This document shows, in pieces, positions 5,206-58,497 of a stretch of DNA of 64,000 nt. A program made the position numbers and the translations under genes. The stretch covers positions 186,569 through 250,568 of the IMG/VR virus record IMGVR_UViG_3300026549_000001; one strand, 5' to 3'. Source of the DNA: a virus. Its lineage: Duplodnaviria; Heunggongvirae; Uroviricota; Caudoviricetes. A model generated the notes under the pieces. That model was not told the DNA's origin. It saw only the letters and a list, made by a program, of their open reading frames with translations, and ran no database searches. The stretch's first letter is position 1. Each line of letters begins with the position of its first letter.

Positions 5206-5409
5206 TTATATCAAGTCAAATTTTAATATACCACAAAGTCTTGTAAGATTACATAATAAATTATAACCACTATAATTCATTTCACCTAAATAGCTTCCAG
5301 AATTATCATTAATAACTATATAACAATCATTATTTGGTTTATCAATTTTTAATTTATAAGTATCTTGAAAATTCTTTAATACTTCTTCAAATAACTCTAT
5401 ATCTGTCAT
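5206..5409 (-). CDS. hypothetical protein
   Basis: 67-aa ORF. Confidence 0.3.
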   Translation of the reverse strand: MTDIELFEEVLKNFQDTYKLKIDKPNNDCYIVINDNSGSYLGEMNYSGYNLLCNLTRLCGILKFDLI

Positions 5410-5421
5410 AAGAATTTCCCC

Positions 5422-5757
5422 TTAATAATCAGTCCAATGAACGACAACCGTATCATTAGTCCAATATGAAGAATCATCCCATGAGTTTTTAAGTGCATCA
5501 AAAAATCTATCGGCATCTATATACTCCAATGGGTTAGGTGCGCCCCGTAATTTACCATCTAAATCATCAAACAAGCTGATATACCAACCTTCGGATAATT
5601 CATAATCTACAAACTCATCCGTATTGTCAAAATAATAAATCGTAGCGGCATTTTCTATATCATGGTTTTGATATGCTATATCTTCAGCATCTTCGGGAAA
5701 ATCCTCTTTGAAATCATCAAAAGAATTGTATACTTTATAAGTAGACCAAATAGCCAT
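5422..5757 (-). CDS. hypothetical acidic protein
   Basis: 111-aa ORF, D/E/W-rich. Confidence 0.4.
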   Translation of the reverse strand: MAIWSTYKVYNSFDDFKEDFPEDAEDIAYQNHDIENAATIYYFDNTDEFVDYELSEGWYISLFDDLDGKLRGAPNPLEYIDADRFFDALKNSWDDSSYWTNDTVVVHWTDY

Positions 5758-5855
5758 AATTCTTCTCCTTTAATTTTTTAGTCATATAACAGTTTCAGTA
5801 AATTTGTTTCATATACGATTGTGTGTGTAATATTACCATATATGTTATCTTTATG

Positions 5856-6233
5856 TTATAAATGATTCAGGCGAAGGCTTAATGTTATTTCAATAGCCAC
5901 CGCTTCATCAGGAATAACATCATGTAATAGGTCAGTTTGAAAATATACAGTTATTCCAGTGTCGGAAGGGTGAGCGTACAAAACCCTAAATGGAGCTTGT
6001 TCTAATTTTCCCCTTCCATTTGGTGTCATTTCTTTATATGTGTTTAAGTTTGTTCTTATCCAGTATAATATCTCATCTGCGCGTAAATTCGCATCGAAAA
6101 CCTCACTAAATAACTGTTGGTTCACTGTGCATATTTTAAGTGTAGTGACATAGGAAGCAAAAAGGTCTATATCATTACAAAGTCTAACAAACTTGTTTTT
6201 CCAACTTGATATTTCCGACAATGTTCTATACAT
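5856..6233 (-). CDS. hypothetical protein
   Basis: 125-aa ORF. Confidence 0.4.
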   Translation of the reverse strand: MYRTLSEISSWKNKFVRLCNDIDLFASYVTTLKICTVNQQLFSEVFDANLRADEILYWIRTNLNTYKEMTPNGRGKLEQAPFRVLYAHPSDTGITVYFQTDLLHDVIPDEAVAIEITLSLRLNHL

Positions 6234-6282
6234 AATTTCTCCACTTTGTAAAATATTTTAAAAAGGCTAAATAGTGTTTAGC

Positions 6283-6780
6283 CTATTCTACTTCTTCCTT
6301 ACAACGGATGCTCACATATTCAAGCGTATCTTTACAATAATCCATTAACACCCAAATTCTATTGTCATCAAAGAAAAACGGCGCATTTTTAGGGAGAGTT
6401 GTAAAAGACAATTCAGAAAGAATAATATTGATTTCTGGTACAAGTCGAGTTACGATACATTCTTCAATATAATCGAATACTTCACTTGGAATATCATCTT
6501 CATCTTCGACACTATTAGATGCTACCTTTAACATAATACTATCATTGGTAATATTATATATATCAAAAGTAAACCACATTCGGATTTGATGATGAAGTCC
6601 ATAATGGAATCGGGACTGCAAATGTTCTAATACACACTTACGCCATGATTCATCAGAATCACCATTAAAATAAAAGTTAGGTAATTCGTGATTGAGCGGA
6701 ATGTGATATACAGTTTCAAACATTGTGGGTTTCCTCCTTGTAAATTTCCACTTTGGGGACACATTGTATAAGCTCGGCAT
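6283..6780 (-). CDS. hypothetical protein
   Basis: 165-aa ORF. Confidence 0.4.
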   Translation of the reverse strand: MPSLYNVSPKWKFTRRKPTMFETVYHIPLNHELPNFYFNGDSDESWRKCVLEHLQSRFHYGLHHQIRMWFTFDIYNITNDSIMLKVASNSVEDEDDIPSEVFDYIEECIVTRLVPEINIILSELSFTTLPKNAPFFFDDNRIWVLMDYCKDTLEYVSIRCKEEVE

Positions 6781-7282
6781 CTACTGTTGGGTATCTATTT
6801 CCTTCTGTTATTTTCCAAGCATCTTCAGCAACTTTAATTTGGTTAAAGGGAACTGTGGTAGTAGTAAACCGTGCTTCTGTTGGGAGAGCTGTAAAAAAAT
6901 TTGCCCTTTTTTCTAACAATTCATTAATTTCAGGAATGTCCATGTTTTCAATTCTACCAATAATAAACGGCATTGTGGTTTCATCTATATCACAAATTTC
7001 ATCTGAATTTACACTTGAAACCATTCCAGTTGCAAGAATATCTTCATCATCTGTACTTAAAGATAAAATAATCCCCGTTGTGAGAACAGCTTTAACATTT
7101 ACTACATATTTGAAAGTCTGTGTGGGGGAGTGTACGAACCCCAAAGTTGAGAAGTTTTCTGAAAGATATTCGCGCACAAAAGAACACCATTGGTTCTTAT
7201 CATCTTCACTACAGTTTAAAGCGTTTATCCTTATATTAAATGGGAGGTGAAATTGCAGTTTACACATATATAATCCTTTCAT
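6716..7282 (-). CDS. hypothetical protein
   Basis: 188-aa ORF; promoter upstream (tgtcaa 7323-7328, attata 7299-7304). Confidence 0.4.
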   Translation of the reverse strand: MKGLYMCKLQFHLPFNIRINALNCSEDDKNQWCSFVREYLSENFSTLGFVHSPTQTFKYVVNVKAVLTTGIILSLSTDDEDILATGMVSSVNSDEICDIDETTMPFIIGRIENMDIPEINELLEKRANFFTALPTEARFTTTTVPFNQIKVAEDAWKITEGNRYPTVDAELIQCVPKVEIYKEETHNV

Positions 7283-7347
7283 TCATTAAGATATTTACAT
7301 TATACTAAAGTTAGTTAGTATTGTCAATAGAAAAGCGTTATATATTT

Positions 7348-7770
7348 TTAATCATAACTTTGGGCAAGTTGTAAAGTTATTAAATTACCAACAGAACGAT
7401 TCTTCAACTGTATAAAGAGGCTACTCCCAATCATAGCACAGAAATTTTCAGTAGGCAGAACTGTAATGGGTATAGCTTCTAAACATTTATTATACACAGG
7501 AACAACTTCGTGAATTATAGAATCATATAGTAAATCTTCTATATCTTCTATGTTATCCTTGTCTGATGTAATTAATAAATTTGCAAAATCATCATATAGG
7601 TCTATATCTCTGCAAATAAATTGAACCCCATTTACCTGAAATATAATTGGGGGTTCTTTTTCTAACTCATCTTGAACTGTATCTAACCAAGATTCCATTT
7701 CACTAATACTTATAAATGGAATTTCCGATAAAGAATGGTTGTAGTTAATTTGTATTTTTCTTTCAAACAT
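7348..7770 (-). CDS. hypothetical protein
   Basis: 140-aa ORF. Confidence 0.4.
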   Translation of the reverse strand: MFERKIQINYNHSLSEIPFISISEMESWLDTVQDELEKEPPIIFQVNGVQFICRDIDLYDDFANLLITSDKDNIEDIEDLLYDSIIHEVVPVYNKCLEAIPITVLPTENFCAMIGSSLFIQLKNRSVGNLITLQLAQSYD

Positions 7771-8158
7771 AAACAGTAATCCCCGCTATTATTTCAATAT
7801 AATAGGTTTTTGGTCGTACACCAAACCTCCCCATATTTTCTTTAACATCAATAGGTTGAGAGCGGAAAATTATGTCAATTCCCTCATCTCCCGAAGAACA
7901 ATGATGCTTCGTAAAAGTTAGTCCCTGTTGAACCCACTCTATCAGGCTATCGGCTGTCTCTTGACTTCGTGCAGAATATTGTATAGCGTTTATAATAGAT
8001 TGAGTGGAAATTGTATCTTCCCACTCATTTCTTATTGCTAAAGTATTATGTTGTTGACACAATTCAATATTATATTCTATACGGGTATCTACTCCAATAT
8101 TTGTGAATTGTTTGCTAATGTTTTCAAGAGTATTGATTATATCATTTGAACTTAACAT
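7763..8158 (-). CDS. hypothetical protein
   Basis: 131-aa ORF. Confidence 0.4.
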   Translation of the reverse strand: MLSSNDIINTLENISKQFTNIGVDTRIEYNIELCQQHNTLAIRNEWEDTISTQSIINAIQYSARSQETADSLIEWVQQGLTFTKHHCSSGDEGIDIIFRSQPIDVKENMGRFGVRPKTYYIEIIAGITVYV

Positions 8159-8180
8159 TTATCCTCCATAGATTATAAAA

Positions 8181-9251
8181 TTAGTCATATAAATCAAATG
8201 CTATTTTTGATTTTAAGGATGTTGCGTTTATATGTTCCTCTGATAATAGCGCATAAAATGTCTTTTTAGATGGCTTATATATAAACGAACCGAAAGTATC
8301 ACCCTGTTTCAAAAAAGATGTAATCATTGCAGATGGAATATATTTACCATCGGGCTGTAGATAAAATCTTGATAGTAATGCTATTTCATAAAATCTACTC
8401 TGAACACCGATATATCCTATTTGGTCTATAATCTCATTGATTTTTGCTTTTACAGATGGATAGTCGGTTATCTCTTTCTTATCAATCTTTTGTTCAAGAG
8501 CAACATTTAGTTTTTCCGTAACACCCTTATTCATACTATCTAATGATGCTTGTGTGGCGTGTTCTGTTATCATTAGAGTAGAATATACTCCTATATATTT
8601 AGGTATAAAATATCTATCGTGTGCGCGTTTATATATTCCAGCACAAGTTTTACAAAACTTCCTATGTGTTCTACTATGTTTACAGGTAAGAAAACTTCTT
8701 ATATGTATGGTAGATAACCCTTCTACATTGGAAAGAAATTCCTCATAGGATTCTGTAAAATCATTTAGTTCCGTAATAAAATGATTCTTGACTTTATAAT
8801 TATAGGTAGTTTCATCAATAGGAAGTTCTAATTCCGAACCCTCCGCACCACAATCATCATAAGATAAATCTATAATCATATTATCACAAGACGAAATAAG
8901 TTTCTTATAGAAAAATCCACTTTCTGTAATATTAGTTACATTTGCCGCTATTACAGATTTCATAAACTTACTACTTTCTTCTTCGGTGTAATTTGCTCCC
9001 CTGCGCTGACAAGATGCAATAATATCTTTTGTATTCCCTGTAAAGGCTGTTATGTGTTCAATTTTTCGCATAGCTTCAAATGATTGTTCATTGGGTGTTC
9101 CAAAAGCATTAGCAAAATCTCCCACATTTGGGATGTAGCATTCGGAAAACATTTTACTACCTAAAGCGTTATATGCTTTTGTATAAGTAGCTCTATCAAC
9201 AGAATTTAATTTATCACAAGCGGTTTCATACTTCATTAATAAACCCTCCAC
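8181..9251 (-). CDS. multisubunit RNA polymerase beta' subunit, C-terminal piece (beta'C)
   Basis: SGFFYKKLISSCDNMII resembles beta' region F (SGYLTRRLVDVAQD); ITEHATQASLDSMNKG resembles trigger-loop motif IGEPGTQLTMRTFHIGG; downstream of beta'N on the same strand. Confidence 0.6.
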   Translation of the reverse strand: MEGLLMKYETACDKLNSVDRATYTKAYNALGSKMFSECYIPNVGDFANAFGTPNEQSFEAMRKIEHITAFTGNTKDIIASCQRRGANYTEEESSKFMKSVIAANVTNITESGFFYKKLISSCDNMIIDLSYDDCGAEGSELELPIDETTYNYKVKNHFITELNDFTESYEEFLSNVEGLSTIHIRSFLTCKHSRTHRKFCKTCAGIYKRAHDRYFIPKYIGVYSTLMITEHATQASLDSMNKGVTEKLNVALEQKIDKKEITDYPSVKAKINEIIDQIGYIGVQSRFYEIALLSRFYLQPDGKYIPSAMITSFLKQGDTFGSFIYKPSKKTFYALLSEEHINATSLKSKIAFDLYD

Positions 9252-9424
9252 GCCTCATTTGTAAAAAACTTATCAATATCAGATGTAGACCATAAAACAA
9301 TATAATTGAGCTTATTTTTAATGGCTATATCTCGCTTTTCAATATCATCAAGAGTCCATCTTTGGATAGCTCTATTATAGAAAGGAGTATTCTTTTTACG
9401 CCACTTTTCGACAATAAGATTATC
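9237..9424 (-). pseudogene. C-terminal fragment of a disrupted homing-endonuclease-like gene (paralog of 39428..40309)
   Basis: open frame with no start codon translating to ...FYNRAIQRWTLDDIEKRDIAIKNKLNYIVLWSTSDIDKFF, which aligns with the C-terminus of the 293-aa paralog (FYDKVIEVWTVADVNKYNIALQNNLNYKQIWDIKELEEY). Confidence 0.6.
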
Positions 9425-9453
9425 TTAAACATCGTTCATAAATTAATACATTA

Positions 9454-10896
9454 TTAAACAAAAACCAACCCTGCATTTTGTTTTAGTAATTTACATTTAC
9501 TATATAATGCTTTTACTCCATCTTCAAATATTAAATATTGTGGGTTTCCTTTATATATGCCTTGTGAGCCTTTTAGTGTTCTCACTTTATTATTTACAAA
9601 CCATTTACTGCCAGGTAATATTCTATCTATTCTCTTTTTTATTGGTAAATGGTCTTTTACCTTTAAATTGTCTGCTCTCCCACCTTGTAGTATATATTCA
9701 TCCAAACTCAAAGAATTTTGTTCAAAAGCCCTATGACGGTTGGTTGCTACTACTTTTCCATCTAAATAATATTTCCTATGACAATTTTCTTGATGCACTA
9801 CTTGTCTGTCGTGCCGCCTATATTGTTTTATCTTATATATCTTTTTTGGTAACACAACTTTATCAATATTTAATTGAGAGAAAGCAATACAATAAGCATC
9901 TATATAGTGGTCTTTTTCTATTCCATATTTTTTGCGAATTGAAGAAGTCATATATCCATCAGTTAAATGTAATCTATAATCCTTTTGAAGATGCTTTACA
10001 AGAAAAGGAATAATTTGATTTAGAACGCTTAATGCTCTAAATTTTTTATATCTACCCTGTACTATATTTTGTACTTTGTCTTTCCAAGATGGAGAAGTAT
10101 GGATTAAAGAATGATGATATTCACAAAGACCAACTATATTAGAAACTGTATCACTTCCCTGTTTATGCTTTGGGATTATATGGTGATGGTGTTCTATTTT
10201 CTCTTTGCAAAATATACACTTTCCTTCTTGTGTTTTGTAGACTCTATCTTCTAAACTGCCATATCCTTTTAACAGATTTTTTGAAGAAATAACATCAAGT
10301 TCATTAAACCAAAAGGAATTAAGTTCTAAAACAATATCTGTTATTGGTAAAAATTTCCTTATCTTATTTATTAAATTTTGATGTGTTAAAAGTAATTGAT
10401 TCACAGTAGGAGTGAGCCATCCATCTTTCCTTTTACGGTTGCTATATCTTGATTCTTTATTTTTTATATACTTCAATGTAATTGGTGTTTCACATTGAGG
10501 TAATTTCCTTTGAAACTGCTCTGATTTTATTGTTCCATTTGTTTTTGCCCTTCTCTGTTTCTTTTTGCGCCTTGTTGTTTGTCTGTGCTTGCTTCTAAAT
10601 ACTTTTCTTTGAAACATCAATTGGGGAATATCTTTATTTCTTGTTTCAACAGAAGCACTAAATACAGGAATTGCCTTTTCAGTAATAACAGAAATACCTA
10701 TATTAGTTCTACCAGAGTCTACTCCAAGATATAGTTTTTGTACTTTATTAAGTTTTTCTTCTAATAATTGAATAGTAAATGGATTAGTATTATATACTTT
10801 TGCTTTATTATTTTGTAGAAGCCATCTCACATGACCACATCTGTTTGTAGGCATTAATGGCTCTCCATCTTTATTTATTACATATACATATATCAT
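9454..10896 (-). CDS. iscB: IscB RNA-guided nuclease (OMEGA system; IS200/605-family cargo, Cas9 ancestor)
   Basis: N-terminal PLMP motif (GEPLMPTNRCGHVRWLL); RuvC-I LGVDSGRTNIGISV; Arg-rich bridge helix RKVFRSKHRQTTRRKKKQRRAK; RuvC-II ITDIVLELNSF; zinc-finger HNH CIFCKEKIEHHHHIIPKH...SNIVGLCEYHHSLIH; RuvC-III EKDHYIDAYCIAF; 480 aa; all catalytic residues present. Confidence 0.85.
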   Translation of the reverse strand: MIYVYVINKDGEPLMPTNRCGHVRWLLQNNKAKVYNTNPFTIQLLEEKLNKVQKLYLGVDSGRTNIGISVITEKAIPVFSASVETRNKDIPQLMFQRKVFRSKHRQTTRRKKKQRRAKTNGTIKSEQFQRKLPQCETPITLKYIKNKESRYSNRKRKDGWLTPTVNQLLLTHQNLINKIRKFLPITDIVLELNSFWFNELDVISSKNLLKGYGSLEDRVYKTQEGKCIFCKEKIEHHHHIIPKHKQGSDTVSNIVGLCEYHHSLIHTSPSWKDKVQNIVQGRYKKFRALSVLNQIIPFLVKHLQKDYRLHLTDGYMTSSIRKKYGIEKDHYIDAYCIAFSQLNIDKVVLPKKIYKIKQYRRHDRQVVHQENCHRKYYLDGKVVATNRHRAFEQNSLSLDEYILQGGRADNLKVKDHLPIKKRIDRILPGSKWFVNNKVRTLKGSQGIYKGNPQYLIFEDGVKALYSKCKLLKQNAGLVFV

Positions 10897-11170
10897 ATTA
10901 TTATAAGTCGCTTCATAGAAAATGAAGGTAAATGTCTCCCCTGACTGCTTATAGGCTTTGCAGAGTTATAAACTGGGAAAATTCATAAGTGCCATCTATT
11001 TTAAGAACGCCTATAAACGATGTCTGTAACCTACCCGCAGTAATATATCAAAAAGTTGTATGTACCGCAAGTAGGATTTTATTAGTAATAGCACGAGCGG
11101 CTTTTTGTTTATCAACAGTATCAGAAGAATGTGCCTTTTCTTGTGTAGAGGGAATAAGTAAAGTATATTC
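10897..11170 (-). ncRNA. putative omegaRNA scaffold upstream of iscB (extent uncertain)
   Basis: non-HEG-like GC-richer sequence immediately 5' of iscB; IscB omegaRNAs are known to lie 5' of the ORF; the 3' boundary (left end) is inferred from where homology of the flanking HEG fragment to its paralog ends. Confidence 0.3.
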
Positions 11171-11563
11171 TACTCCATATCTATCTAATGCAGTTTGTTT
11201 TCGACTTACTTTTTGTTGAGCAATTATTTCGGGGGTATGCGTTTTTTCTACCACATCTGCTCTTTGAAAAACATTAGTTACACCATACTTTTGTAAACAA
11301 GTTTGTTTTCGTTTTTCGGCAGTTCCAATAGACATACAGCTATTAGAACAATATGTATAATATCCTTCTGATAAAGAATTAAAGTTGGTAGGATTGCCAC
11401 ATACTTTACAATAACCCTTACCATAAAACTTCTCATAATACTTTTGTGCCGTTATGCTGTGGATTTGTCGTATATGTGAGGCTAATCCCATCAAATTGCT
11501 AAATGATTTACCACATATCTTACATGAGCAATCTATCAATTTCGTTTCCTTTACCTTCGTCAT
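11048..11563 (-). pseudogene. N-terminal fragment of the disrupted homing-endonuclease-like gene (C2H2-like Zn finger + YGV(x)N repeats); C-terminal ~40 aa probably read-through into inserted element
   Basis: aligns with residues 1-130 of the 293-aa paralog (CxxCGK...H...H; KYGVTNVFQ; RYGVEY); lacks the paralog's C-terminal nuclease-like domain. Confidence 0.55.
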
Positions 11564-12803
11564 AAAGTTTCTGCATAGTGTATTGTAAATCTTCGGGAAT
11601 ACAGTTTCTTATACTACCATTAGAACCCTCTATATAGTTTACACTTGGTAATAGAGATTTTGCTTCCATACAAGCGGCTTTTGTATACAATGCGATTGCC
11701 GCCAAGCAGTCGCCGTCATAATCTCCCCCTAATCCGCAGGTAATGATTGGGTTCAACTGCATAACATACTTATCTTCTTCCTTATCAGAAAAGACAGGTA
11801 TCATTCCTAAAATAGATAAAGCACCAATTGTAGGCTGTCTATTTATAAGAATATAATATTCATTATCTCTCAAATATTTATTAAGTGCAGTAATATCAGT
11901 AATACCGTTAGTATTAGTGAATTTGTCAAATAATTTGGGATAAAGAGTTTTAATGAAATATTTACCCAAAAGAGCAACATCTTCTGAAATATCAAAGTTA
12001 TTCGTAATTACAGCCCTTATACAGCCTGTAACTCCTTGCCCAATAATTTCACGGGCAAGAATAGATTTTTTGCCTTTCACAAGCATATCAAACAAGCCGT
12101 CATATACTTCGTGAATTTTAGCAAGGATAATTCTTTTGGCATCTAATTCATGAAATACATCTACAACAGTTTCTTGTGTATTTAAGATATTCTGAATAGC
12201 TTTCTTTTGTTTCAGAATATCCACAAAGATAGTGTTTAAATTCCCAAGAAAATATGAACCTCTTTGAATAGTAATCTTCCTTAACGATGTATGTGGGATG
12301 GATAATTTATCATGCACCTGTGCATTATACCATTCTTCTGTACCGCCTAAATAAAAGATAGCATCTTTACCAATAAGAACCTTATCTTTATCAAAGTCAG
12401 TTAAGTTAAGAGTAGTTAGATTAAATTCCACATATTCACCATCATAAAGAAATCCCCTATAATTTAGAATATCATCAACTAATTGATAGTCGGCAAAATC
12501 AGGTATATCTATTTGAAGATAGGGAATATCTAACATACCTTTAAAGGATATATAGAAATTCGGAACTCTGCGTTTATTTAATACTCTTGTTCCACAGTAT
12601 TGACAAATTCCTGGTTTAGTTCTCGCACCACAGGAACACTTACCGAACTTACCAAAAATCTTTGTAGAGAATATACCCTTATCATTAAATAAAAGATTAC
12701 CGTCTTTATCTTTAATTTTATGAGGTTGAAAAACAGAATGAGATGTAACTTCATTTATAGGTAGTTCTTTTATTTTCACTCTTTGTATAGTAACTTTGCT
12801 CAT
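11520..12803 (-). CDS. multisubunit RNA polymerase beta' subunit, N-terminal piece (beta'N)
   Basis: Zn-binding [26 protein letters not shown] matches beta' [46 protein letters not shown] matches NRQPTLHRLGIQAF; catalytic [13 protein letters not shown] matches NADFDGDQMAVH. Confidence 0.8.
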   Translation of the reverse strand: [427 protein letters not shown]

Positions 12804-15031
12804 AGAATACCCCCATTACTCTCTATGGAATTAAACCAAGTCATATCTTGTTCATCAAATTCAATATTAGATAGGTCTGATTTAGTTAATGATTTACCAT
12901 TAACTCTTATATCATATCCAATAGATTTCAAGACTGTTGCTAATTTTAATGATAATGAAGGATTATTAGGAAGTTCTCTTGTTTCTTCCATTTCAGCTAC
13001 CATTTTATTAGCCCCAATATGCTTGTGCATACTTCGTATTGATAACTCTTTAAGAATATTTATACTACCAGATGCTACAAGATTGAATTTTTCCATCTCA
13101 CCAAGTTTCAGCACTTTATCAAAAGCACCATCCGCTTTTGATTCAGAAATATGAATGCTTGCGTGATGATATACTCTCATCATTGTAATAATTCCAACAG
13201 GAATAATATTTGTTTCACCATTAAAAGTGATGACTGAATTATTAGCATACTCACGCATTTGGTCGCTATACTTTTCAATCATATTGGCAATAAAATCCTC
13301 ACCATCTTGATATTCAATACCGCTTGCATTAGCCCACGCTTCAAATATCTGTCCTAATGAACCTCTACGCATTGTAGAAAATCCTGAAATAATAACTTCA
13401 AGATGTCCTTCTTCCATATTGCCTACCTTTTTAGTAAGATAAGGCATTTCAGCATCAGGAACAATCTTTCCAACAGTACCTTTTGCTCCATGACGGTTTG
13501 TGATTTTATCTCCAAGTCTGAAAGGAATTTCCCAAGACAGGAATATTCTAACCCCATAATCTTCTACATAATCAAATCTATCTACTTTCACATTTTCATA
13601 ACTGCTCAAAATAGCTTCAGCCGTTGATGGATATATTTTTTGTAAAAGCTCAATAGAAATGTTATCTTTATTCTTCTCTAATTCAGCAACAACTTTATCT
13701 TTGGTTTCAAAATATAGTATATCTTTTGAATAGGTACGAAGTCTATTTGCAAAGGATTCTGAAATGATAATGCTATCACCATAGGTGAATCCTTTAATAT
13801 CTGTAAATCCTACACGAGCATTTATAAGATGAGTTAAAGGGTTAAGTTCTTCTTTAAGGGGAACACTTTGAGAGGTGAGTTTTGCGTTCATCATAATCCT
13901 TTTAGGCTTATCATTATTACCAAAAGGAGCAGATGATAGGCAAGAAAGGCGAACAGGTTGAGGCTCTATCATATACTCAAACATATTCTTTTCAACCCCA
14001 TTTTCCTCAATCCAAAGCATACCATCTTTGACGATTACATTATCAAGAAGTAGTCTTTGTCTACCCGCAGAAGAAGATGTAACGGTTTTGAAAGCATCAA
14101 AAAATCCTATAGTATCTGTATATGTAAAAGCGGGTTTATATTCCCCATTATATATATTAACAACTGTTCTGAAATTTTCCAAAGCATAAATAGGGCTTTC
14201 TGCTCTTATCAAACAGCCATCATTTCTTTCTCCTGTATAGAATACTTTATTTTGACTGGCAAACATTTGATTTATGCCTAATAGAATCTTCTTTGTTGGT
14301 TGAGCATAACGACCGCTCTTAAAGATTATATCTTCAAAATATTCTATACGCGCAAATTTATAATTGAATATAGAGTTGCTTTCAAAGGTGGGTAATAATC
14401 CTAATGCTTGCTTAAAGTTATCAATAGATAGCGGTTCATCTAATACACTTTGTAATAAGGCTCTTGACCTTTTAGAGAGTCTATTATTATATATTTCTTC
14501 TAATGTAGGCTCAAATGGATTTTGTTTTAGAACACAAGTAAACTTATCCTCAAATATATCATAAGTCCACCCCTCACCTTTAATGGTTTGGAAATCTACT
14601 TTACCGAGAAAGGTATAATAATCTCTTACAGCAGTAACCCTCGGAACATACTTTGTTCTGTTGATAATCCAAGTTAAATCTTGACAGGGGGTAGGAATTG
14701 CACAAATCTTAAATTCTTTATCAACATTAGTGCCTTTATATTCTACTGAATATACAGCAGAAACATCTATGCACATATTATAAAAATTAAGAGATAAGCG
14801 ATAGGAGTTCTTGAGTTTCCTATCAAAGTTTTTATCAAGAACTCCACTATTTATACCATTTGCGAGTTGACAAGGCTGTTCAACATTCCAATATTTCAAA
14901 CAGCATTCGTCAAGATGTTTTTGTATATCACTAAAAGGAATAGAATCATCTATTGGTTCTATTCCAAATAGTTTTATATTAGCCTTTTTCCAATAATTCT
15001 GTTCTCTATTGAAAAGTTGAATTTCTTTCAT
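12800..15031 (-). CDS. multisubunit RNA polymerase beta subunit (compact/C-terminal portion)
   Basis: GDKITNRHGAKGTVGKIV matches beta GDKMAGRHGNKGVISKI; PFGNNDKPKRIMMNAKLTSQSVPL matches the HND...NMQRQAVPL region; LGEMEKFNLVASGS matches GEMEVWALEAYGA. Confidence 0.75.
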   Translation of the reverse strand: MKEIQLFNREQNYWKKANIKLFGIEPIDDSIPFSDIQKHLDECCLKYWNVEQPCQLANGINSGVLDKNFDRKLKNSYRLSLNFYNMCIDVSAVYSVEYKGTNVDKEFKICAIPTPCQDLTWIINRTKYVPRVTAVRDYYTFLGKVDFQTIKGEGWTYDIFEDKFTCVLKQNPFEPTLEEIYNNRLSKRSRALLQSVLDEPLSIDNFKQALGLLPTFESNSIFNYKFARIEYFEDIIFKSGRYAQPTKKILLGINQMFASQNKVFYTGERNDGCLIRAESPIYALENFRTVVNIYNGEYKPAFTYTDTIGFFDAFKTVTSSSAGRQRLLLDNVIVKDGMLWIEENGVEKNMFEYMIEPQPVRLSCLSSAPFGNNDKPKRIMMNAKLTSQSVPLKEELNPLTHLINARVGFTDIKGFTYGDSIIISESFANRLRTYSKDILYFETKDKVVAELEKNKDNISIELLQKIYPSTAEAILSSYENVKVDRFDYVEDYGVRIFLSWEIPFRLGDKITNRHGAKGTVGKIVPDAEMPYLTKKVGNMEEGHLEVIISGFSTMRRGSLGQIFEAWANASGIEYQDGEDFIANMIEKYSDQMREYANNSVITFNGETNIIPVGIITMMRVYHHASIHISESKADGAFDKVLKLGEMEKFNLVASGSINILKELSIRSMHKHIGANKMVAEMEETRELPNNPSLSLKLATVLKSIGYDIRVNGKSLTKSDLSNIEFDEQDMTWFNSIESNGGIL

Positions 15032-30710: not shown

Positions 30711-31068
30711 CTTGTGCCTCCTTCAGTAGCTCTAAAAATATATTAAATGTTTGTAAGGGAAGAATTGCATAATTTTCGCCATTAGGTTCAAAATTAAATA
30801 TTAATGTTGAAAATTCTTTGCCCATAAAACGAGCCTCTTCTTTTAACTTATCCAACCACTCTTTTTTGATTGATATAGAGGATGATGGGCTTGTTTTTGT
30901 CTTACATTCTATAAGAAATTGCTCGTGAACAATATCTCCCTTTTGGAATGGAGTAGCCCCAGAGTTGGCAGTTGTTTTACCGCCAATCTCTTTTGCTACA
31001 TACTTTTCTTGTTTAGAGGAATAAAACCTTGTAGGTTTATTCTCGGTATTTTTATGCAACCTTGTCAT
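30703..31068 (-). CDS. putative PD-(D/E)xK nuclease (resolvase-like)
   Basis: GDIVHEQFLIECKTK (D...E-x-K); adjacent to recombinase gene. Confidence 0.35.
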   Translation of the reverse strand: MTRLHKNTENKPTRFYSSKQEKYVAKEIGGKTTANSGATPFQKGDIVHEQFLIECKTKTSPSSSISIKKEWLDKLKEEARFMGKEFSTLIFNFEPNGENYAILPLQTFNIFLELLKEAQDG

Positions 31069-32204
31069 GCAATCGAATTTTCTTCATTAAGAATTCTTGC
31101 TAATTCTGCTTCATCAAGTAGATTAGCGGTTCTTCCGCTTTTGTTAATAAAGTCAGACAGCATATTTACATAGTCCTGTGTGAACTGTGGATTATCATTT
31201 AAAAAGCTAAACAGCGAATTTTTTCCCCTAAACTCGCAAAGTTTACCATTTCCACCATCTAAAACCTCACCTGTTTCGGGGTTTATCAATCTATAAGTTT
31301 GAAGATTAGGTCTATCAATAAAACCAAATGCGATAGCGGCTTCTACAGTATCGAATACCTTATCAATACCGTCTTTATAGCGGAATGTCATATATCCACC
31401 GCCCCTATCAGTTTTCCCTTGCCTTGATTTAGTGATGGTAAATACCAACCTAAATCCGTCTATATCTGCACTTGCTTTACTTGCGGAAATGTCTGTTTTA
31501 TCTCCACAAGTATATGTACGCTTTCCGAAGCGAACCTTAACTGCGGGGAAATATCTAATTCCTCTGCCACCAGGCTCAACATATTGAATTGCACCTGTGG
31601 GAAGGGGCTTTTCACTAACTTGATTGATAATGATTAAGCTGTTCTGCTTTTTAGGCAACTCATTCACCATTTGCCTAAAAAACTTAATGGTTGTGTTCGC
31701 AATGTTGCCACGCATACCGTTATCTTTGGTGAAGTCGTTATCCAAGTCTGCACGGGGAATAAGGGATGCTACACTATCCAATACGATTAGCCCGATATTG
31801 TCCGATTGTTGTAGAGCCAATATATCCTCATATACTTCATCGGCACTTTTTCCTATAGTATCATATACATATAGTTGCTTCAAATTCAATCCTGTCATTT
31901 TGACAAAGAAATCTCTTTGAGATACAAGGGTATGTTCGGCATCAACATACAAACACATCTTGTGCGGGAATTTCTTTTGATAGCACGAGATGGCAAGCGC
32001 AGATGCTAATGATTTTCCAGAGTGTTCTACTCCCGAAAATGAAATAATCATACCTAATGGGAGACCACCATACAGGGGGTAATCCGCTCCCAAAGAGCCT
32101 GTTGAAAACATTTCGCAATCTGCAATGTTATCTCCTGTATAGAGAGTTGTATATTCCTCGCCCCATTTCTTATTGATTTTCTTTACTACATCTTCAAATC
32201 TCAT
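31065..32204 (-). CDS. RecA/UvsX-family recombinase
   Basis: Walker A GVEHSGKSLAS; Walker B LIVLDSVASL; RecA-like N-terminal LGADYPLYGGLPLGMII. Confidence 0.7.
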   Translation of the reverse strand: MRFEDVVKKINKKWGEEYTTLYTGDNIADCEMFSTGSLGADYPLYGGLPLGMIISFSGVEHSGKSLASALAISCYQKKFPHKMCLYVDAEHTLVSQRDFFVKMTGLNLKQLYVYDTIGKSADEVYEDILALQQSDNIGLIVLDSVASLIPRADLDNDFTKDNGMRGNIANTTIKFFRQMVNELPKKQNSLIIINQVSEKPLPTGAIQYVEPGGRGIRYFPAVKVRFGKRTYTCGDKTDISASKASADIDGFRLVFTITKSRQGKTDRGGGYMTFRYKDGIDKVFDTVEAAIAFGFIDRPNLQTYRLINPETGEVLDGGNGKLCEFRGKNSLFSFLNDNPQFTQDYVNMLSDFINKSGRTANLLDEAELARILNEENSIA

Positions 32205-37013: not shown

Positions 37014-39428
37014 TTACTCTAAATCCAAGTCAGTATATTCTTTCCCGTGTAATGTAATATATTCTTTTCTATCAGCAGAGTCGTTACCCATAAACAGTTC
37101 AAGATATTTCTCTGCTTCTTTAGCATCTTCCATTGTGACTCTTGTGAGATGTCTCGTTTCAGGAGACATGAAGATTGCCATAGTTTGATAATCCACCTCA
37201 CCCAGACCCTTGTTTCTCGATAATTTACATTTAATCCCATCTGTCATATCTTTCATTTCTTGGTCGGTAAAGGCATAGAGCATTTTTCCCTTATCTTTTC
37301 CCTCTAATATTTGAATTTCATATAAGGGCGTGTCCAAGAAATAAACATATCCTTGTTTTATAAGTTCAGGGGTTAGTCGATAGAATAGGGTAAGACAAAG
37401 TGCAATTATGTGGCAATTATGTACTATAATTCCTTCCAAATTGTCATCATCTACACAAACCATAAAGTTTTCATATCCTGGAACAGTCAAGTCATATACC
37501 TTAATAGGCACATCACAAACAATATGTTGCATAGACTTTATTCTATGATTATATATTTTTGAATGTCTGAAATAAATAGAGCTTATAGAATCATTTGGTG
37601 TTAGGCTTTGCGCTTCTTTATATGTACCATCATTTAGTAATATTCTATGGTCTGGGGTACATCTTACCACAAATCCATTTTCAAAGGTTAGCTCTACTAA
37701 TTCAGTTGTTTCCTTTGTTACACGCGGATTAACTGCTCTTGCGGGAACAACTTCTCCATTTTCATCTTTTGAGTATACCCACAACTCGGTAATGTTATTA
37801 TTGACTAACTCTTCAAAAGTATATGTATTCCCATCTAACGACTTAATTTTAGTGTCTCCAGTAAAGCACCCATCGGTGTCCTGGTCTGTAGCAAGAATTA
37901 TTTTATCGAATCTTCTGTTATTGATGTCAAAATTGCCAAGATTGTTTTTACCTTTGCCCCCATGCATTTCAACACCTGTACCAACTAATTTCATAATATC
38001 CATAATCAATTCATTTTTAAAGATACTACTATAATCAGCTTTTAGAGTATTTAATATTTTACCTCTTATAGCAAGAAGGGCTTGTGTTTCTCCATTTCTT
38101 GCTTGTTTCAAAGAACCCATTGCGGATAAACCTTCCGCAATAAAAAGTTCTCTATCTTCGGGGTTTTTATTTCGACAATCAACAAAATTCTTGATTCTAT
38201 CATCTAACTTCATTTTGTTAGATAGTTTTTGTTTAGTTGCTAATTTCTGTGCGGTTGCGCTCTTTCGAGATTGCACATTAATTGATACCTGATTGGTTAC
38301 TTTTTCAAGCTCTAATGGGTTTTCTTTTGCCCAATCCCTCAAAAACTTTGTTATCTGTTGAGCTAAAAATTCCTCAATGAATTTATTATTTATAGCCCTC
38401 TTGGTTTGGTTTTCGTATGAAGTTTCTGTACTAAAGGTATTTGACAGGAAAATCATTGAGTCCTGTATGTCCTCAAATTCAAGTTCCTTTGCTCTGTTGC
38501 TATCTGTCTTTTTTAATTCTGTTTTAAAGAACTCTAAAAGTGCTTTTTCTTTTGCTCGTCTGGGAGAGCCACCATATAGTAAAGGGGAGGAGTTGTGGAA
38601 ATATAGAGAATTTGGACTTTTATTACCAAATAAAATAACTACTTCTCCTTTTACCTTATAATTAGGCTTATCGGCTCTATCTTTCCCCGCACCTTCAAAT
38701 GTAAAATTAATGGCATCAGTTAGTGTTTCATTTCCCGCAAGTTCTTTTGCAAATCCTAAAATACCATTAGGATAAACTATTGTTTCTTTAGTTCCATCTC
38801 TTTTATCTATAAAATTAAAGGTTAATCCAGCATTTACAATTGCTTGTTCTTTTAACATTTGTAAATACCATTCTTTGTCAATATTGATGTCGGTAAATAC
38901 TTCTATGTCAGGCTTAAATATTTGCTTCGTTCCTGTTTTCTGTGGTTTGGCAGTATCTTTCTCTTTAATTAAGTTTCCGACAGGTTCGCCCTTTTCAAAT
39001 GACATTTTAAAGATTTTTCCATCTCTTCTTGATTCCACCTTAAACCACTCGGACGATGCTTGAGCCGCAAATGTTCCCAACCCATTAATTCCTAAACTAA
39101 AATCATAAGAATCATTGGAATATTTTGAACCAGAGTACATCTCGCAGAAAATAAGCTCCCAATTATATCTGTCTTCTGCCTTATTATAGTCCATAGGAAC
39201 TCCCCTACCAAAGTCTTCTACTTCAATAGAGTTATCATTGCCTATAGTTATATTTATGGTGTCGCCATAACCGCTTCGAGCCTCATCAATAGAGTTAGAA
39301 ATAATTTCAAAAACGGCGTGTTGTGTTCCCTGAATATCATTAGAGCCAAGCATTACCCCTACTCTTTTTCGTATTCTATCTGCCCCTTTAAGTGAACTTA
39401 TACTGCTATCATCATATTTTTTTGCCAT
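37014..39428 (-). CDS. type II DNA topoisomerase, GyrB-like ATPase/TOPRIM subunit (T4 gp39-like), containing a mini-intein
   Basis: ATPase EIISNSIDEA; TOPRIM EGLSAMGS and IILATDQDTDG; extein resumes CHIIALCLTLFYRL...PLYEI, matching GyrB SHIRTLLLTFFYR...PLYKV. Confidence 0.8.
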   Translation of the reverse strand: MAKKYDDSSISSLKGADRIRKRVGVMLGSNDIQGTQHAVFEIISNSIDEARSGYGDTINITIGNDNSIEVEDFGRGVPMDYNKAEDRYNWELIFCEMYSGSKYSNDSYDFSLGINGLGTFAAQASSEWFKVESRRDGKIFKMSFEKGEPVGNLIKEKDTAKPQKTGTKQIFKPDIEVFTDINIDKEWYLQMLKEQAIVNAGLTFNFIDKRDGTKETIVYPNGILGFAKELAGNETLTDAINFTFEGAGKDRADKPNYKVKGEVVILFGNKSPNSLYFHNSSPLLYGGSPRRAKEKALLEFFKTELKKTDSNRAKELEFEDIQDSMIFLSNTFSTETSYENQTKRAINNKFIEEFLAQQITKFLRDWAKENPLELEKVTNQVSINVQSRKSATAQKLATKQKLSNKMKLDDRIKNFVDCRNKNPEDRELFIAEGLSAMGSLKQARNGETQALLAIRGKILNTLKADYSSIFKNELIMDIMKLVGTGVEMHGGKGKNNLGNFDINNRRFDKIILATDQDTDGCFTGDTKIKSLDGNTYTFEELVNNNITELWVYSKDENGEVVPARAVNPRVTKETTELVELTFENGFVVRCTPDHRILLNDGTYKEAQSLTPNDSISSIYFRHSKIYNHRIKSMQHIVCDVPIKVYDLTVPGYENFMVCVDDDNLEGIIVHNCHIIALCLTLFYRLTPELIKQGYVYFLDTPLYEIQILEGKDKGKMLYAFTDQEMKDMTDGIKCKLSRNKGLGEVDYQTMAIFMSPETRHLTRVTMEDAKEAEKYLELFMGNDSADRKEYITLHGKEYTDLDLE
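37416..37868 (-). other. mini-intein (151 aa) inserted in the TOPRIM domain of the GyrB-like gene
   Basis: begins CFTGDTKI (block A), TPDHRIL (block B), ends VYDLTV...ENFMV...GIIVHN followed by +1 Cys; host protein motifs are contiguous when the segment is removed. Confidence 0.75.
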
Positions 39429-40309
39429 TACTTCCCATACCTCTCTATTAATTCTTGCATATACTCTTCTAATTCTTTAATATCCCATATTTGTTTGTAA
39501 TTGAGATTATTTTGAAGTGCTATATTATATTTGTTTACATCTGCCACCGTCCACACTTCTATAACCTTATCATAAAATTTACTCTGTTTTGATTTAAATT
39601 CATTTAATTGTCTGATGTCATTAGGGTTACTTTTATTAAAGTTATGATGATTGTGTGTGGGATGTAAATTTAACTCAATAAATAAATCTAATGGTTTTAT
39701 ATAAAAATCACAATGAAACGGATACCTTTCATCCGCATTATACTCTCTTTTTATATCTTCTCTCTTAAAAATTGTTAAAAGAAACCTATTAAAGTCTTCT
39801 TCGGCTTTAGAAGTGTTAAATGTTCCATTATTTCTTTTAGTAGCCAATCTCTTTCTATTTGCTTCTTTTGTATGTCCATTTATTTTAGTTTTTTCCAAGT
39901 GTGTTGGGTTTTCGACCCCGTACCTTTTTAAATTGGTTTGTTTTATTTTTTCTTTAATTTCTTCGCTTTGAAAAACATTATCTACGCCGTATAATTTCCT
40001 TATACTTTCACGGTATCTTTTACTTCCAAATCTAAATGGATTTACTTCCCCATAATTCTTAATCCAAGTAGCGTCCTTTAACCGTTTTACACTTTCACTA
40101 TTATTAGAACACTTAAGACTGCAAAATTTTGTATATCCTACAAATACTCCTATAAATCTTTTCTTTTTACCACAAACAGAACAACGGCTGTCGTTTTCAG
40201 CACCTATATAAGTTTGATAATACTCTTCAGCAGATATATTATGCGCCTTTAGGTGTACCCCAAATTGTTTTTTATTTAACAGTTTTCCACATAATTCACA
40301 TTTTTCCAT
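39428..40309 (-). CDS. free-standing homing-endonuclease-like protein (N-terminal C2H2-type Zn finger, tandem YGV(x)N repeats, C-terminal nuclease-like domain)
   Basis: CELCGK...H...H; LYGVDNVFQ / RYGVENPT repeats; paralog of the split gene at 9237..11563; sits immediately upstream of the topoisomerase gene. Confidence 0.5.
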   Translation of the reverse strand: MEKCELCGKLLNKKQFGVHLKAHNISAEEYYQTYIGAENDSRCSVCGKKKRFIGVFVGYTKFCSLKCSNNSESVKRLKDATWIKNYGEVNPFRFGSKRYRESIRKLYGVDNVFQSEEIKEKIKQTNLKRYGVENPTHLEKTKINGHTKEANRKRLATKRNNGTFNTSKAEEDFNRFLLTIFKREDIKREYNADERYPFHCDFYIKPLDLFIELNLHPTHNHHNFNKSNPNDIRQLNEFKSKQSKFYDKVIEVWTVADVNKYNIALQNNLNYKQIWDIKELEEYMQELIERYGK

Positions 40310-40468: not shown

Positions 40469-40951
40469 CTATTTGCTATACCTGTTGGCAATACCACTTG
40501 CTGTCGAACTATATGGTTTAATATTGCAAGTATATCCCATACTTTGCACCCACCCAACTATTTCAGGAATAAGTTGGTTAGTATTGCCATTATGTCCTAT
40601 GTCACAATGTATTGCAAAAGTAATATTGTAGTTTTCTAATTTATCAATCTTTTCTATCTCTGTTAAGAGCTTATCGGACAGTTCTAAACTGCGATTAGTT
40701 TCTTCGTGTATCTTTGTACGCAAATCCGAAATGCGAGATACAAATTCAGAACAGTAAAAATATATACCACCACTACCAATACGATGGACAGAAATTACTT
40801 CTACTATTTTTGTCCTGTCGTGGTTTTGGCTGTCTGTTCCAACCGTTATTGAGTAATCTTTATAAGGTTGAGCCTGTATAAAACTAATAATTTTTTCTGC
40901 AACTTGGGAAAGAGTTACTATATCGCCATTCGGTCTTTTAAAATGTTTCAT
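40469..40951 (-). CDS. RNase H-like fold protein (DUF458/YkuK-like)
   Basis: ITVGTDSQ...VISVHRIGSGG motif. Confidence 0.35.
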   Translation of the reverse strand: MKHFKRPNGDIVTLSQVAEKIISFIQAQPYKDYSITVGTDSQNHDRTKIVEVISVHRIGSGGIYFYCSEFVSRISDLRTKIHEETNRSLELSDKLLTEIEKIDKLENYNITFAIHCDIGHNGNTNQLIPEIVGWVQSMGYTCNIKPYSSTASGIANRYSK

Positions 40952-58071: not shown

Positions 58072-58497
58072 TTACAAAGTTTGAATTACATCCATCAACT
58101 TAAAATCTTTTGCAAATAGTCCGTTTTTAGGTTGTCCATCTAACGGCTCAATCAGTCTTAATCTTTGCGCTCTTTTTCCACATACCCCTAATGGGATTAA
58201 ATAACATTGATTATTATGTATGGTTGCAAAAAAGTCAACATCATTTTGTGAATAAGAAAGATTTAAAGTTCCTTTGGTGTTTGTATGGCTTGTGCTTGTG
58301 GGAAAATCAAAATACTTACCGTTTTCTCTTTCTCTACAAGTCTTTACTTGAATCTTATACAGATGATTATTTATATCTGCAATAAAATCGTATCGTGAAC
58401 TTTGTACTAATGGCTTTGAAAGTAAAACTCCTAATTTTAAAAACTCCAAAGCTACTTCTTGTTCTGTTATTTCTCCAATAAAATGACTACTTAACAT
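58072..58497 (-). CDS. small PD-(D/E)xK-like protein encoded inside the split tRNA gene (candidate intron/homing endonuclease)
   Basis: 141 aa; YDFIADINNHLYKIQVKT (D...D/E-x-K-like); ORF flanked by 10-bp inverted repeat TGACAATTAC/GTAATTGTCA. Confidence 0.45.
   Translation of the reverse strand: MLSSHFIGEITEQEVALEFLKLGVLLSKPLVQSSRYDFIADINNHLYKIQVKTCRERENGKYFDFPTSTSHTNTKGTLNLSYSQNDVDFFATIHNNQCYLIPLGVCGKRAQRLRLIEPLDGQPKNGLFAKDFKLMDVIQTL

Follow-up and report, generated by a model that had tools for sequence, protein, structure and literature searches.

The IscB nuclease OgeuIscB, from a human-gut metagenome, is represented by the structures PDB 7XHT, 7UTN and 8CSZ, and the roles of its residues were defined by Kato et al. 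2022 (PMC9640706). Elements of the ISC/IS200-IS605 type (Kapitonov et al. 2016, PMC4810608; Meers et al. 2023, PMC10055086) carry a single iscB, a structured RNA on its 5′ side, a guide taken from the flanking DNA and no transposase of their own; ISC/IS605 elements were described as having neither terminal inverted repeats (TIRs) nor target duplications (Kapitonov et al. 2016). IStrons lacking TnpA and the IS605-TnpB plasmid gene drive ('non-restorative homing') also keep an OMEGA nuclease without a transposase, and are proposed to spread by cleavage of alleles that lack the element, into which recombination then copies it (PMC10690162, PMC11870625, PMC13565253). The free-standing homing endonuclease genes (HEGs) Seg and Mob of phage T4, which move by 'intronless homing', lie intergenically between conserved essential genes, with variable occupancy and with overlapping stop and start codons. 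Here we describe a locus that resembles each of these systems in part. It lies in a 64,000-nt stretch of DNA (positions 186,569 to 250,568 of the IMG/VR record IMGVR_UViG_3300026549_000001, a virus of the Caudoviricetes), which we call the window. Our comparisons demonstrate a minimal OMEGA module, made up of a predicted omegaRNA gene and iscB, in place of the core of a HEG, without a transposase or a distal transposon end. All coordinates are those of the window unless a contig is named; the features of the locus, like all long open reading frames (ORFs) of the window, are on the minus strand.

The IscB protein and its omegaRNA

The ORF at 9454..10896 encodes a protein of 480 amino acids (aa) that scored 186.4 bits against the NCBIfam model NF040563 ('RNA-guided endonuclease IscB'), above the curated family cutoff of 175, and matched the Pfam models RRXRR (3e-40) and HNH. 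Residues 2-478 align with the OgeuIscB chains 7xht, 7utn and 8csz (E ~1e-141), with an identity of ~50% from end to end. The motifs follow one another in the canonical IscB order, which is also the domain order of OgeuIscB: the PLMP motif (residues 13-16), RuvC-I with D60 (OgeuIscB D61), an arginine-rich bridge helix (residues ~97-117), RuvC-II with E191 (E193), the HNH domain with the zinc ligands C227, C230 and C258 and with H238 (H247), H239, N253 and H262, and RuvC-III with H330 and D333 (H340 and D343). Every position that is invariant in an alignment of 21 homologs (49-56% identity), catalytic residues and zinc ligands included, is kept. Judged by its residues, the protein is thus a full-length and catalytically complete IscB. 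An earlier reading of the window from its letters alone (the sequence-only reading) had predicted an intact gene with this full list of motifs; the profile search and the alignment of the catalytic D, E, H, N and H-D residues that it had proposed as checks both bear it out. The gene has a G+C content of 29%, and its G+C content at third codon positions is 0.18, against 0.21-0.24 in the adjacent RNA polymerase (RNAP) genes, which suggests long residence in this AT-rich genome (overall G+C of the window, 33.5%). An identical 480-aa protein is encoded on a metagenomic contig of 250,591 bp.

Directly upstream of iscB lies a predicted omegaRNA gene (~10900..11092). The 244 nt preceding the iscB ATG can be aligned with the corresponding DNA of phage-borne homologs, and the iscB upstream regions have in common the motifs TTTCCCAG...CTGC.AAGC...CAGyCArGGGArACA...hairpin...GACTTAT. 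A scan by E-value of positions 8000..13000 and of eight homolog loci with Rfam returned no omegaRNA/HEARO match for the IscB clade found here, and we therefore built our own covariance model from 23 homolog omegaRNA cores, leaving out the window sequence. This model matched positions 10903..11032 on the minus strand with 78.7 bits (E 3.8e-16), its sole match in the 64 kb. As RNAalifold on raw MAFFT alignments recovered the pseudoknot-loop helix only, the architecture of the OgeuIscB omegaRNA (PMC9640706) was mapped onto the window sequence by hand. The resulting scaffold (10900..11076, ~177 nt) would fold into a guide-adaptor hairpin of 13 bp (11075-11063 paired with 11042-11030), a nexus stem (GAC:GUC), a central stem of 10 bp, a stem-loop 2 of 3 bp, a nexus pseudoknot hairpin of 11 bp, a UCCC:GGGG pseudoknot and a single terminal hairpin of 6 bp. 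The guide-adaptor hairpin, nexus stem, central stem, nexus pseudoknot hairpin, CCC:GGG pseudoknot and terminal hairpin all have their counterparts in OgeuIscB; in contrast to the 206-nt OgeuIscB scaffold, the window scaffold lacks stem-loop 3 and the 3′ tail containing a Shine-Dalgarno (SD) sequence.

Covariation points to the same structure. In a seven-sequence alignment, 84.6% of the cells pair as proposed, compared with ~39% after a shift of the partners by 1-3 columns; compensatory changes on both sides occur in 25 of the 50 pairs, and no shuffle out of 500 reached the values observed. On this comparative evidence, the upstream RNA is the predicted cognate omegaRNA of an OgeuIscB-type architecture. 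From a practical point of view, the locus offers a compact (480 aa), AT-adapted relative of OgeuIscB with a naturally shortened scaffold.

By position relative to the OgeuIscB architecture, the guide is predicted to be the 16 nt (±1 nt) at 11077..11092, GCUAUUACUAAUAAAA, directly 5′ of the guide-adaptor hairpin. These nucleotides are HEG coding sequence (A-I-T-N-K) from just upstream of the deleted HEG core. Within the window and every locus that was fetched, the guide matches only itself (two of these loci, L001 and L093, are copies of the same contig), and an exact IMG/VR scan for the 22-nt guide flank gave no match. The sole match of the guide is followed by the scaffold, not by a target-adjacent motif (TAM), and the intact HEG paralog at 39428..40309 is unmatched.

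HEG remnants and cassette boundaries

The module is flanked by two parts of a HEG-like gene and lies with them between the genes for two parts of the β′ subunit of the phage's multisubunit RNAP, β′N and β′C. In a tblastn search, the intact 293-aa paralog at 39428..40309, which contains a PD-(D/E)xK-like core, aligned with its residues 4-158 to 11524..11093 (E 8e-14) and with its residues 235-283 to 9412..9266 (E 3e-8). Both matches are in one reading frame, in agreement with the earlier claim that the flanks are the N- and C-terminal parts of a gene related to this paralog. The N-terminal remnant (HEG-N, 11077..11563) comprises a C2H2 zinc finger (Pfam zf-C2H2) and repeated 'KYGV' modules. It is read as part of a 171-aa ORF, which, like the paralog, matches DUF7487 and the 'homing endonuclease' family phrog_3339 (the latter at 9e-12). 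The homing activity of this family is putative and stems from annotation; one member is named 'csr/mutH/archaeal HJR family nuclease' in one source. The 171-aa ORF ends in omegaRNA scaffold: its final nine codons and stop (11075..11048) lie within the guide-adaptor hairpin, which makes the ORF a fusion of HEG sequence and scaffold. The C-terminal remnant (HEG-C, 9236..9442) ends with a stop codon at 9238..9236; an alignment with the family members P0243, P0244 and P0246 carries its homology past an in-frame TAA (9427..9425) to 9436 or beyond. The overall location that the sequence-only reading had given for the HEG therefore stands, whereas its limits do not: HEG-N does not run to 11048, as the scaffold begins at 11076, and HEG-C reaches further on one side and ends at the 9238..9236 stop on the other. 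No intact ortholog of the interrupted HEG was found; its best relatives are 28-39% identical, and around the remnants on the other contigs that carry them, the neighbouring genes are the same.

All eight intact family members in the alignment have, between the two parts, a conserved block of PD-(D/E)xK-like character, 'YPFxCDFY.P..DL.IE.NG.W.H'. The block is present in the paralog and missing from the interrupted copy, which is for this reason a dead remnant. At the cassette (11076 to ~9443-9454, ~1.63 kb), ~50-55 HEG codons (~150 bp) are missing, this core included. Because the core that separates the two retained parts in intact members is absent here, the cassette replaces the HEG core and was not simply inserted between adjacent bases; the simple insertion into the HEG postulated earlier does not account for the lost codons, whose place the cassette occupies. 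An intron-like reading, which the common frame of the two remnants might invite, was rejected on account of the missing core and the in-frame TAA in HEG-C. Separately, the IscB RuvC-II segment FLPITDIVLELNSFW (10309-10353) resembles the HEG core YLPxxDxFIEINGYW (tblastn E 0.006 in a 2.4-kb database). We judged this to be a chance resemblance of two acidic nuclease motifs and not a sign of common origin, because the RuvC-II motif is conserved in all IscBs.

The distal boundary of the cassette bears on its classification. The iscB stop and HEG-derived DNA are only 11-17 nt apart, and this short junction (9443..9453) leaves no room for a transposon end. No inverted, direct or hairpin copy of the scaffold start was found downstream of iscB, and the proximal hairpin of the cassette is the guide-adaptor hairpin of the omegaRNA itself. 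IS200/IS605 elements are recognized by imperfect subterminal hairpins at both ends and by precise insertion beside a target motif of 4-5 nt, with neither loss nor duplication of target; here the distal side has neither hairpin nor repeat, and part of the target is gone. In Pfam scans of minus-strand ORFs (those of 60 aa or more in 1-32 kb and those of 90-300 aa in 32-64 kb), no Y1 (HUH) TnpA (PF01797) was found, as the sequence-only reading had also noted. That reading had nevertheless taken the cassette for an IS200/605-like element, that is, a non-autonomous ISC element moved into the HEG by a Y1 TnpA acting in trans. The classical association of iscB with ISC/IS605-type elements (PMC4810608, PMC10055086) and a cassette size typical of ISC elements speak for such an origin, but peel-and-paste insertion would not have removed ~150 bp of target, a distal subterminal hairpin has left no trace, the window yielded no Y1 transposase and related phage elements bear ends of a different kind, described below. 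We regard this origin as very improbable; the IS200/IS605 label is not supported for the window copy and is doubtful for its clade.

Related elements and a model of RNA-guided homing

A profile-guided scan of IMG/VR yielded 270 viral contigs encoding relatives of this IscB clade, so that a phage with IscB is no rarity. INPHARED contained eight more distant IscB matches, Clostridium phage c-st among them, and the single metagenome scan made with IscB gave one weak fragment only. Many phage elements of the OgeuIscB clade have TIRs of 14-22 bp, in which the distal end repeats the first 14-22 nt of the scaffold as their reverse complement, and locus-specific direct repeats of 8-9 bp that abut both ends (IMG/VR and Logan contigs L003, L008, L018, L023, L025, L042, L043, L046, L048, L051, L052, L060, L066, L067, L072 and L087). 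The elements extend from ~200-230 nt before the iscB ATG to 30-55 nt past the stop, and an NWRR-like motif (for example AAAGGA, CAAAAA or AAAAGA) mostly follows the right direct repeat. The OgeuIscB-like IMG/VR locus L003, for instance, reads ATATTAGG / element / ATATTAGG AAAGGA, with a 14-bp inverted and an 8-bp direct repeat, in contrast to the window copy with its missing distal end. When the empty site is rebuilt from the direct repeats, it provides a full protospacer and TAM for the element's own guide. Set against the description of ISC/IS605 elements by Kapitonov et al. 2016, these TIRs and direct repeats suggest a different mechanism of mobilization. In the window, the 8 nt from the iscB stop codon on (9446-9453, TAATAATG) resemble the last 8 nt of the guide (11077-11084, TAATAAAA) at 6 of 8 positions; these nucleotides may be what is left of direct repeats like those of the relatives, or the similarity may be a coincidence of AT-rich DNA.

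Four of the closest IscB relatives found (L086, L089, L091 and L092; 51-56% identity) also lack a distal inverted repeat, which makes the missing distal end a trait of the lineage. In their ORFs, the conserved GLVFV end is not directly followed by a stop, and the frame reads on into a conserved GTATCAAAGAC, which is not conserved in the window. In the closest relative (L086, positions 5242-7865 of its contig; 56% identity), the cassette lies within an EcoRI-type adenine methylase gene and separates it into parts of 191 and 145 aa, which correspond to Pfam positions 3-195 and 212-345, coordinates from which the exact junction cannot be fixed. The guide is again coding sequence, here of the methylase, and an intact 332-aa methylase paralog as well as GIY-YIG and HNH genes lie nearby. 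L086 is a second case of this type of cassette inside a gene.

Since the guide of the window copy is HEG coding sequence, its most likely role would be RNA-guided homing against cassette-free HEG alleles. According to this model, the omegaRNA would be made by read-through of the RNAP operon and would bind IscB. The complex would then cut, in co-infecting phages, HEG alleles that still hold the core, in which native HEG sequence (a TAM) would adjoin the guide match in place of the scaffold. Following the OMEGA logic described by Meers et al. 2023 (PMC10055086), the carrier genome would be immune because its own guide match is followed by scaffold and not by a TAM. The break would be repaired by recombination with the carrier genome, with the HEG remnants and β′ genes as homology arms and with the help of the phage RecA (a homolog is encoded at 31065..32204; Pfam RecA 1.5e-26), and the repair would copy the cassette in and remove the HEG core. 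Given no distal end, no TnpA and a partly deleted target, the cassette could be mobile, if at all, only by homologous recombination. TnpA-independent OMEGA homing has been shown into plasmids for TnpB and proposed into phages (PMC11870625, as cited in PMC13565253); this 2026 review calls it theoretical for phages.

In contrast to the IStrons and the TnpB drive, the nuclease here is IscB and not TnpB, there is no intron, the phage is of lytic type (source contig, 250 kb) and the allele that would be targeted is itself a selfish HEG. Compared with Seg and Mob of T4, specificity would reside in a 16-nt RNA guide and a TAM in place of a protein DNA-binding domain, and self and non-self would be told apart by the presence or absence of the cassette. 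Should the cassette be active, a natural OMEGA nuclease would here serve as a transposase-free homing endonuclease between phage genomes, with RNA-guided and protein-guided selfish nucleases competing for one genomic niche. The family to which this well-annotated locus belongs is a common one; the value of the locus is that of a candidate natural example of inter-phage RNA-guided homing. We lean, by a small measure, towards the view that an RNA-guided homing nuclease here took over the niche of a protein-guided one.

Several observations count against this view, some of which concern the target and its recognition. Searches for an allele with an intact HEG at this site were unsuccessful, so that target and TAM cannot be reconstructed. 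By eye, we found no NWRRNA motif right after the cassette, and three TAM contacts of OgeuIscB (PMC9640706) differ in the alignment (E460Q, R462I and W479L). The founding event may have been an insertion plus a deletion, or something else, and the reading draws on the sequence of a single genome. Expression is a further concern. The positions upstream of iscB (10897-10912, GCGACTTATAATAATATG) contain no SD, unlike those of all aligned homologs, which have GGAGG or AAAGGAG 6-12 nt ahead of the iscB start, exactly where the window shows an alignment gap of ~15 nt; in a simple pattern scan, an SD was present in 40 of the 63 window genes. Translation may therefore be weak. The sequence-only reading had overlooked both this absence and the omegaRNA.

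These same features could be those of a stranded relic, which arrived once, lost its distal end and the HEG core in one deletion and is now immobile and poorly expressed. The missing SD, the lack of a distal end and of TnpA, and the in-frame stop in the HEG remnant would all fit. Moreover, HEG-C holds the SD of β′C (GGAGGG) and, in a TAATG overlap with its own stop, the β′C start, so that this DNA would be constrained for other reasons. A relic of this kind might accordingly persist only because its removal would disturb expression of the essential downstream β′C. We nevertheless consider both the relic and this reason for its persistence unlikely: an ORF of 480 codons has stayed open at 29% G+C with every invariant homolog position, catalytic residues and zinc ligands included; the omegaRNA helices are retained through compensatory changes; and the missing distal end is shared by the four relatives named above, which is not what a local accident would produce.

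Cleavage could also serve exclusion without spread, if the ribonucleoprotein destroyed HEG-bearing competitor phages, or other targets, at co-infection, to the advantage of the carrier phage. The structural evidence is the same as for homing, and homing endonucleases are described in a review (PMC13565253) as both homing and killing competitors. With homology arms on both sides, however, gene conversion would be expected after a break, and the guide has no other target in the window or in the fetched loci; exclusion by itself therefore seems to us improbable.

Homing may also extend beyond this one locus. Tentatively, a gut-phage lineage of IscB-omegaRNA cassettes, whose members have no distal end and no stop of their own and in some cases lie inside genes, might have given up transposition and consist of true RNA-guided homing endonuclease genes. 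It would then be conceivable, though doubtful, that the window cassette overwrote the core of a protein-only HEG and uses HEG sequence as its guide, in a drive directed at a selfish element in a transcription operon.

The β′ locus and its phage

In the order of the minus strand, the locus consists of a gene for a β-like RNAP subunit (12800..15031), β′N (11520..12803), the 171-aa ORF, a 151-nt gap, iscB, ~215 nt without a called gene and β′C (8181..9236). A scan for promoters and terminators found them no more often than in shuffled sequence. The 427-aa β′N matches Pfam RNA_pol_Rpb1_2 (1.3e-6), PDB β′ chains (3e-7), β′N of the AR9 non-virion RNAP (7s00_d) and phrog_2986; its translation contains the catalytic DxDGD Mg-binding motif as GGDYDGD. 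The match of β′C to TIGR02386 at β′ positions 821-909 is weak, and its identity is supported by its conserved position in relatives and by an identity of 65% to the gene directly after β′N on the contig L082. The β′C start is most likely the ATG at 9236 (351 aa), which is favoured by the gene call and by the SD GGAGGG, and not the GTG at 9251.

Relatives of β′N are numerous and lie on contigs of 0.2-0.5 Mb. Three of the closest, with β′N genes 65-66% identical to that of the window, show how variable the junction is. In L082 it is empty, with β′N and β′C separated by 12 nt (TAA-GGAGGCATCTAT-ATG); in L085 it holds a 57-aa cysteine-rich ORF (7289-7462 of that contig); and in L083 it is filled by ~3 kb of unrelated genes (7293-10237 of that contig), encoding a helix-turn-helix protein, a 483-aa protein without a Pfam match and a GT2 glycosyltransferase. 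HEG and IscB are in none of these three junctions, and the arrangement of IscB within the HEG is specific to this phage among those examined. As β′N and β′C are separate genes 12 nt apart in L082, the split of β′ is ancestral, and the empty or differently filled junctions of the relatives show that the site turns over as an insertion hotspot. The Pfam and PDB matches and the gene order of relatives thus confirm the earlier placement of the cassette between β′N and β′C. Of the nesting in three layers that had been proposed, IscB within a HEG between these genes holds, but only two layers, at an intergenic hotspot, are needed. Neither blastn with the locus nor tblastn with β′N found a match among INPHARED phages, which places the phage lineage outside that collection, and an IMG/VR scan for β′N-related loci found no relative.

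The intact HEG paralog at 39428..40309 occupies a comparable position elsewhere in the window. Its stop overlaps by one base the ATG of an intein-containing GyrB-like gene, in the same TAATG layout as HEG-C and β′C. This GyrB/topoisomerase-like ORF (37014-39428, 804 aa), immediately downstream of the paralog, has an intein-like insert (CFTGDTKIK...IVHNC). An RNaseH_like protein (PF04308) is encoded beside the paralog at 40469-40951. The window further contains 18 tRNA genes, and a PDDEXK_5 endonuclease gene (58072-58497) lies within a tRNA-rich region.

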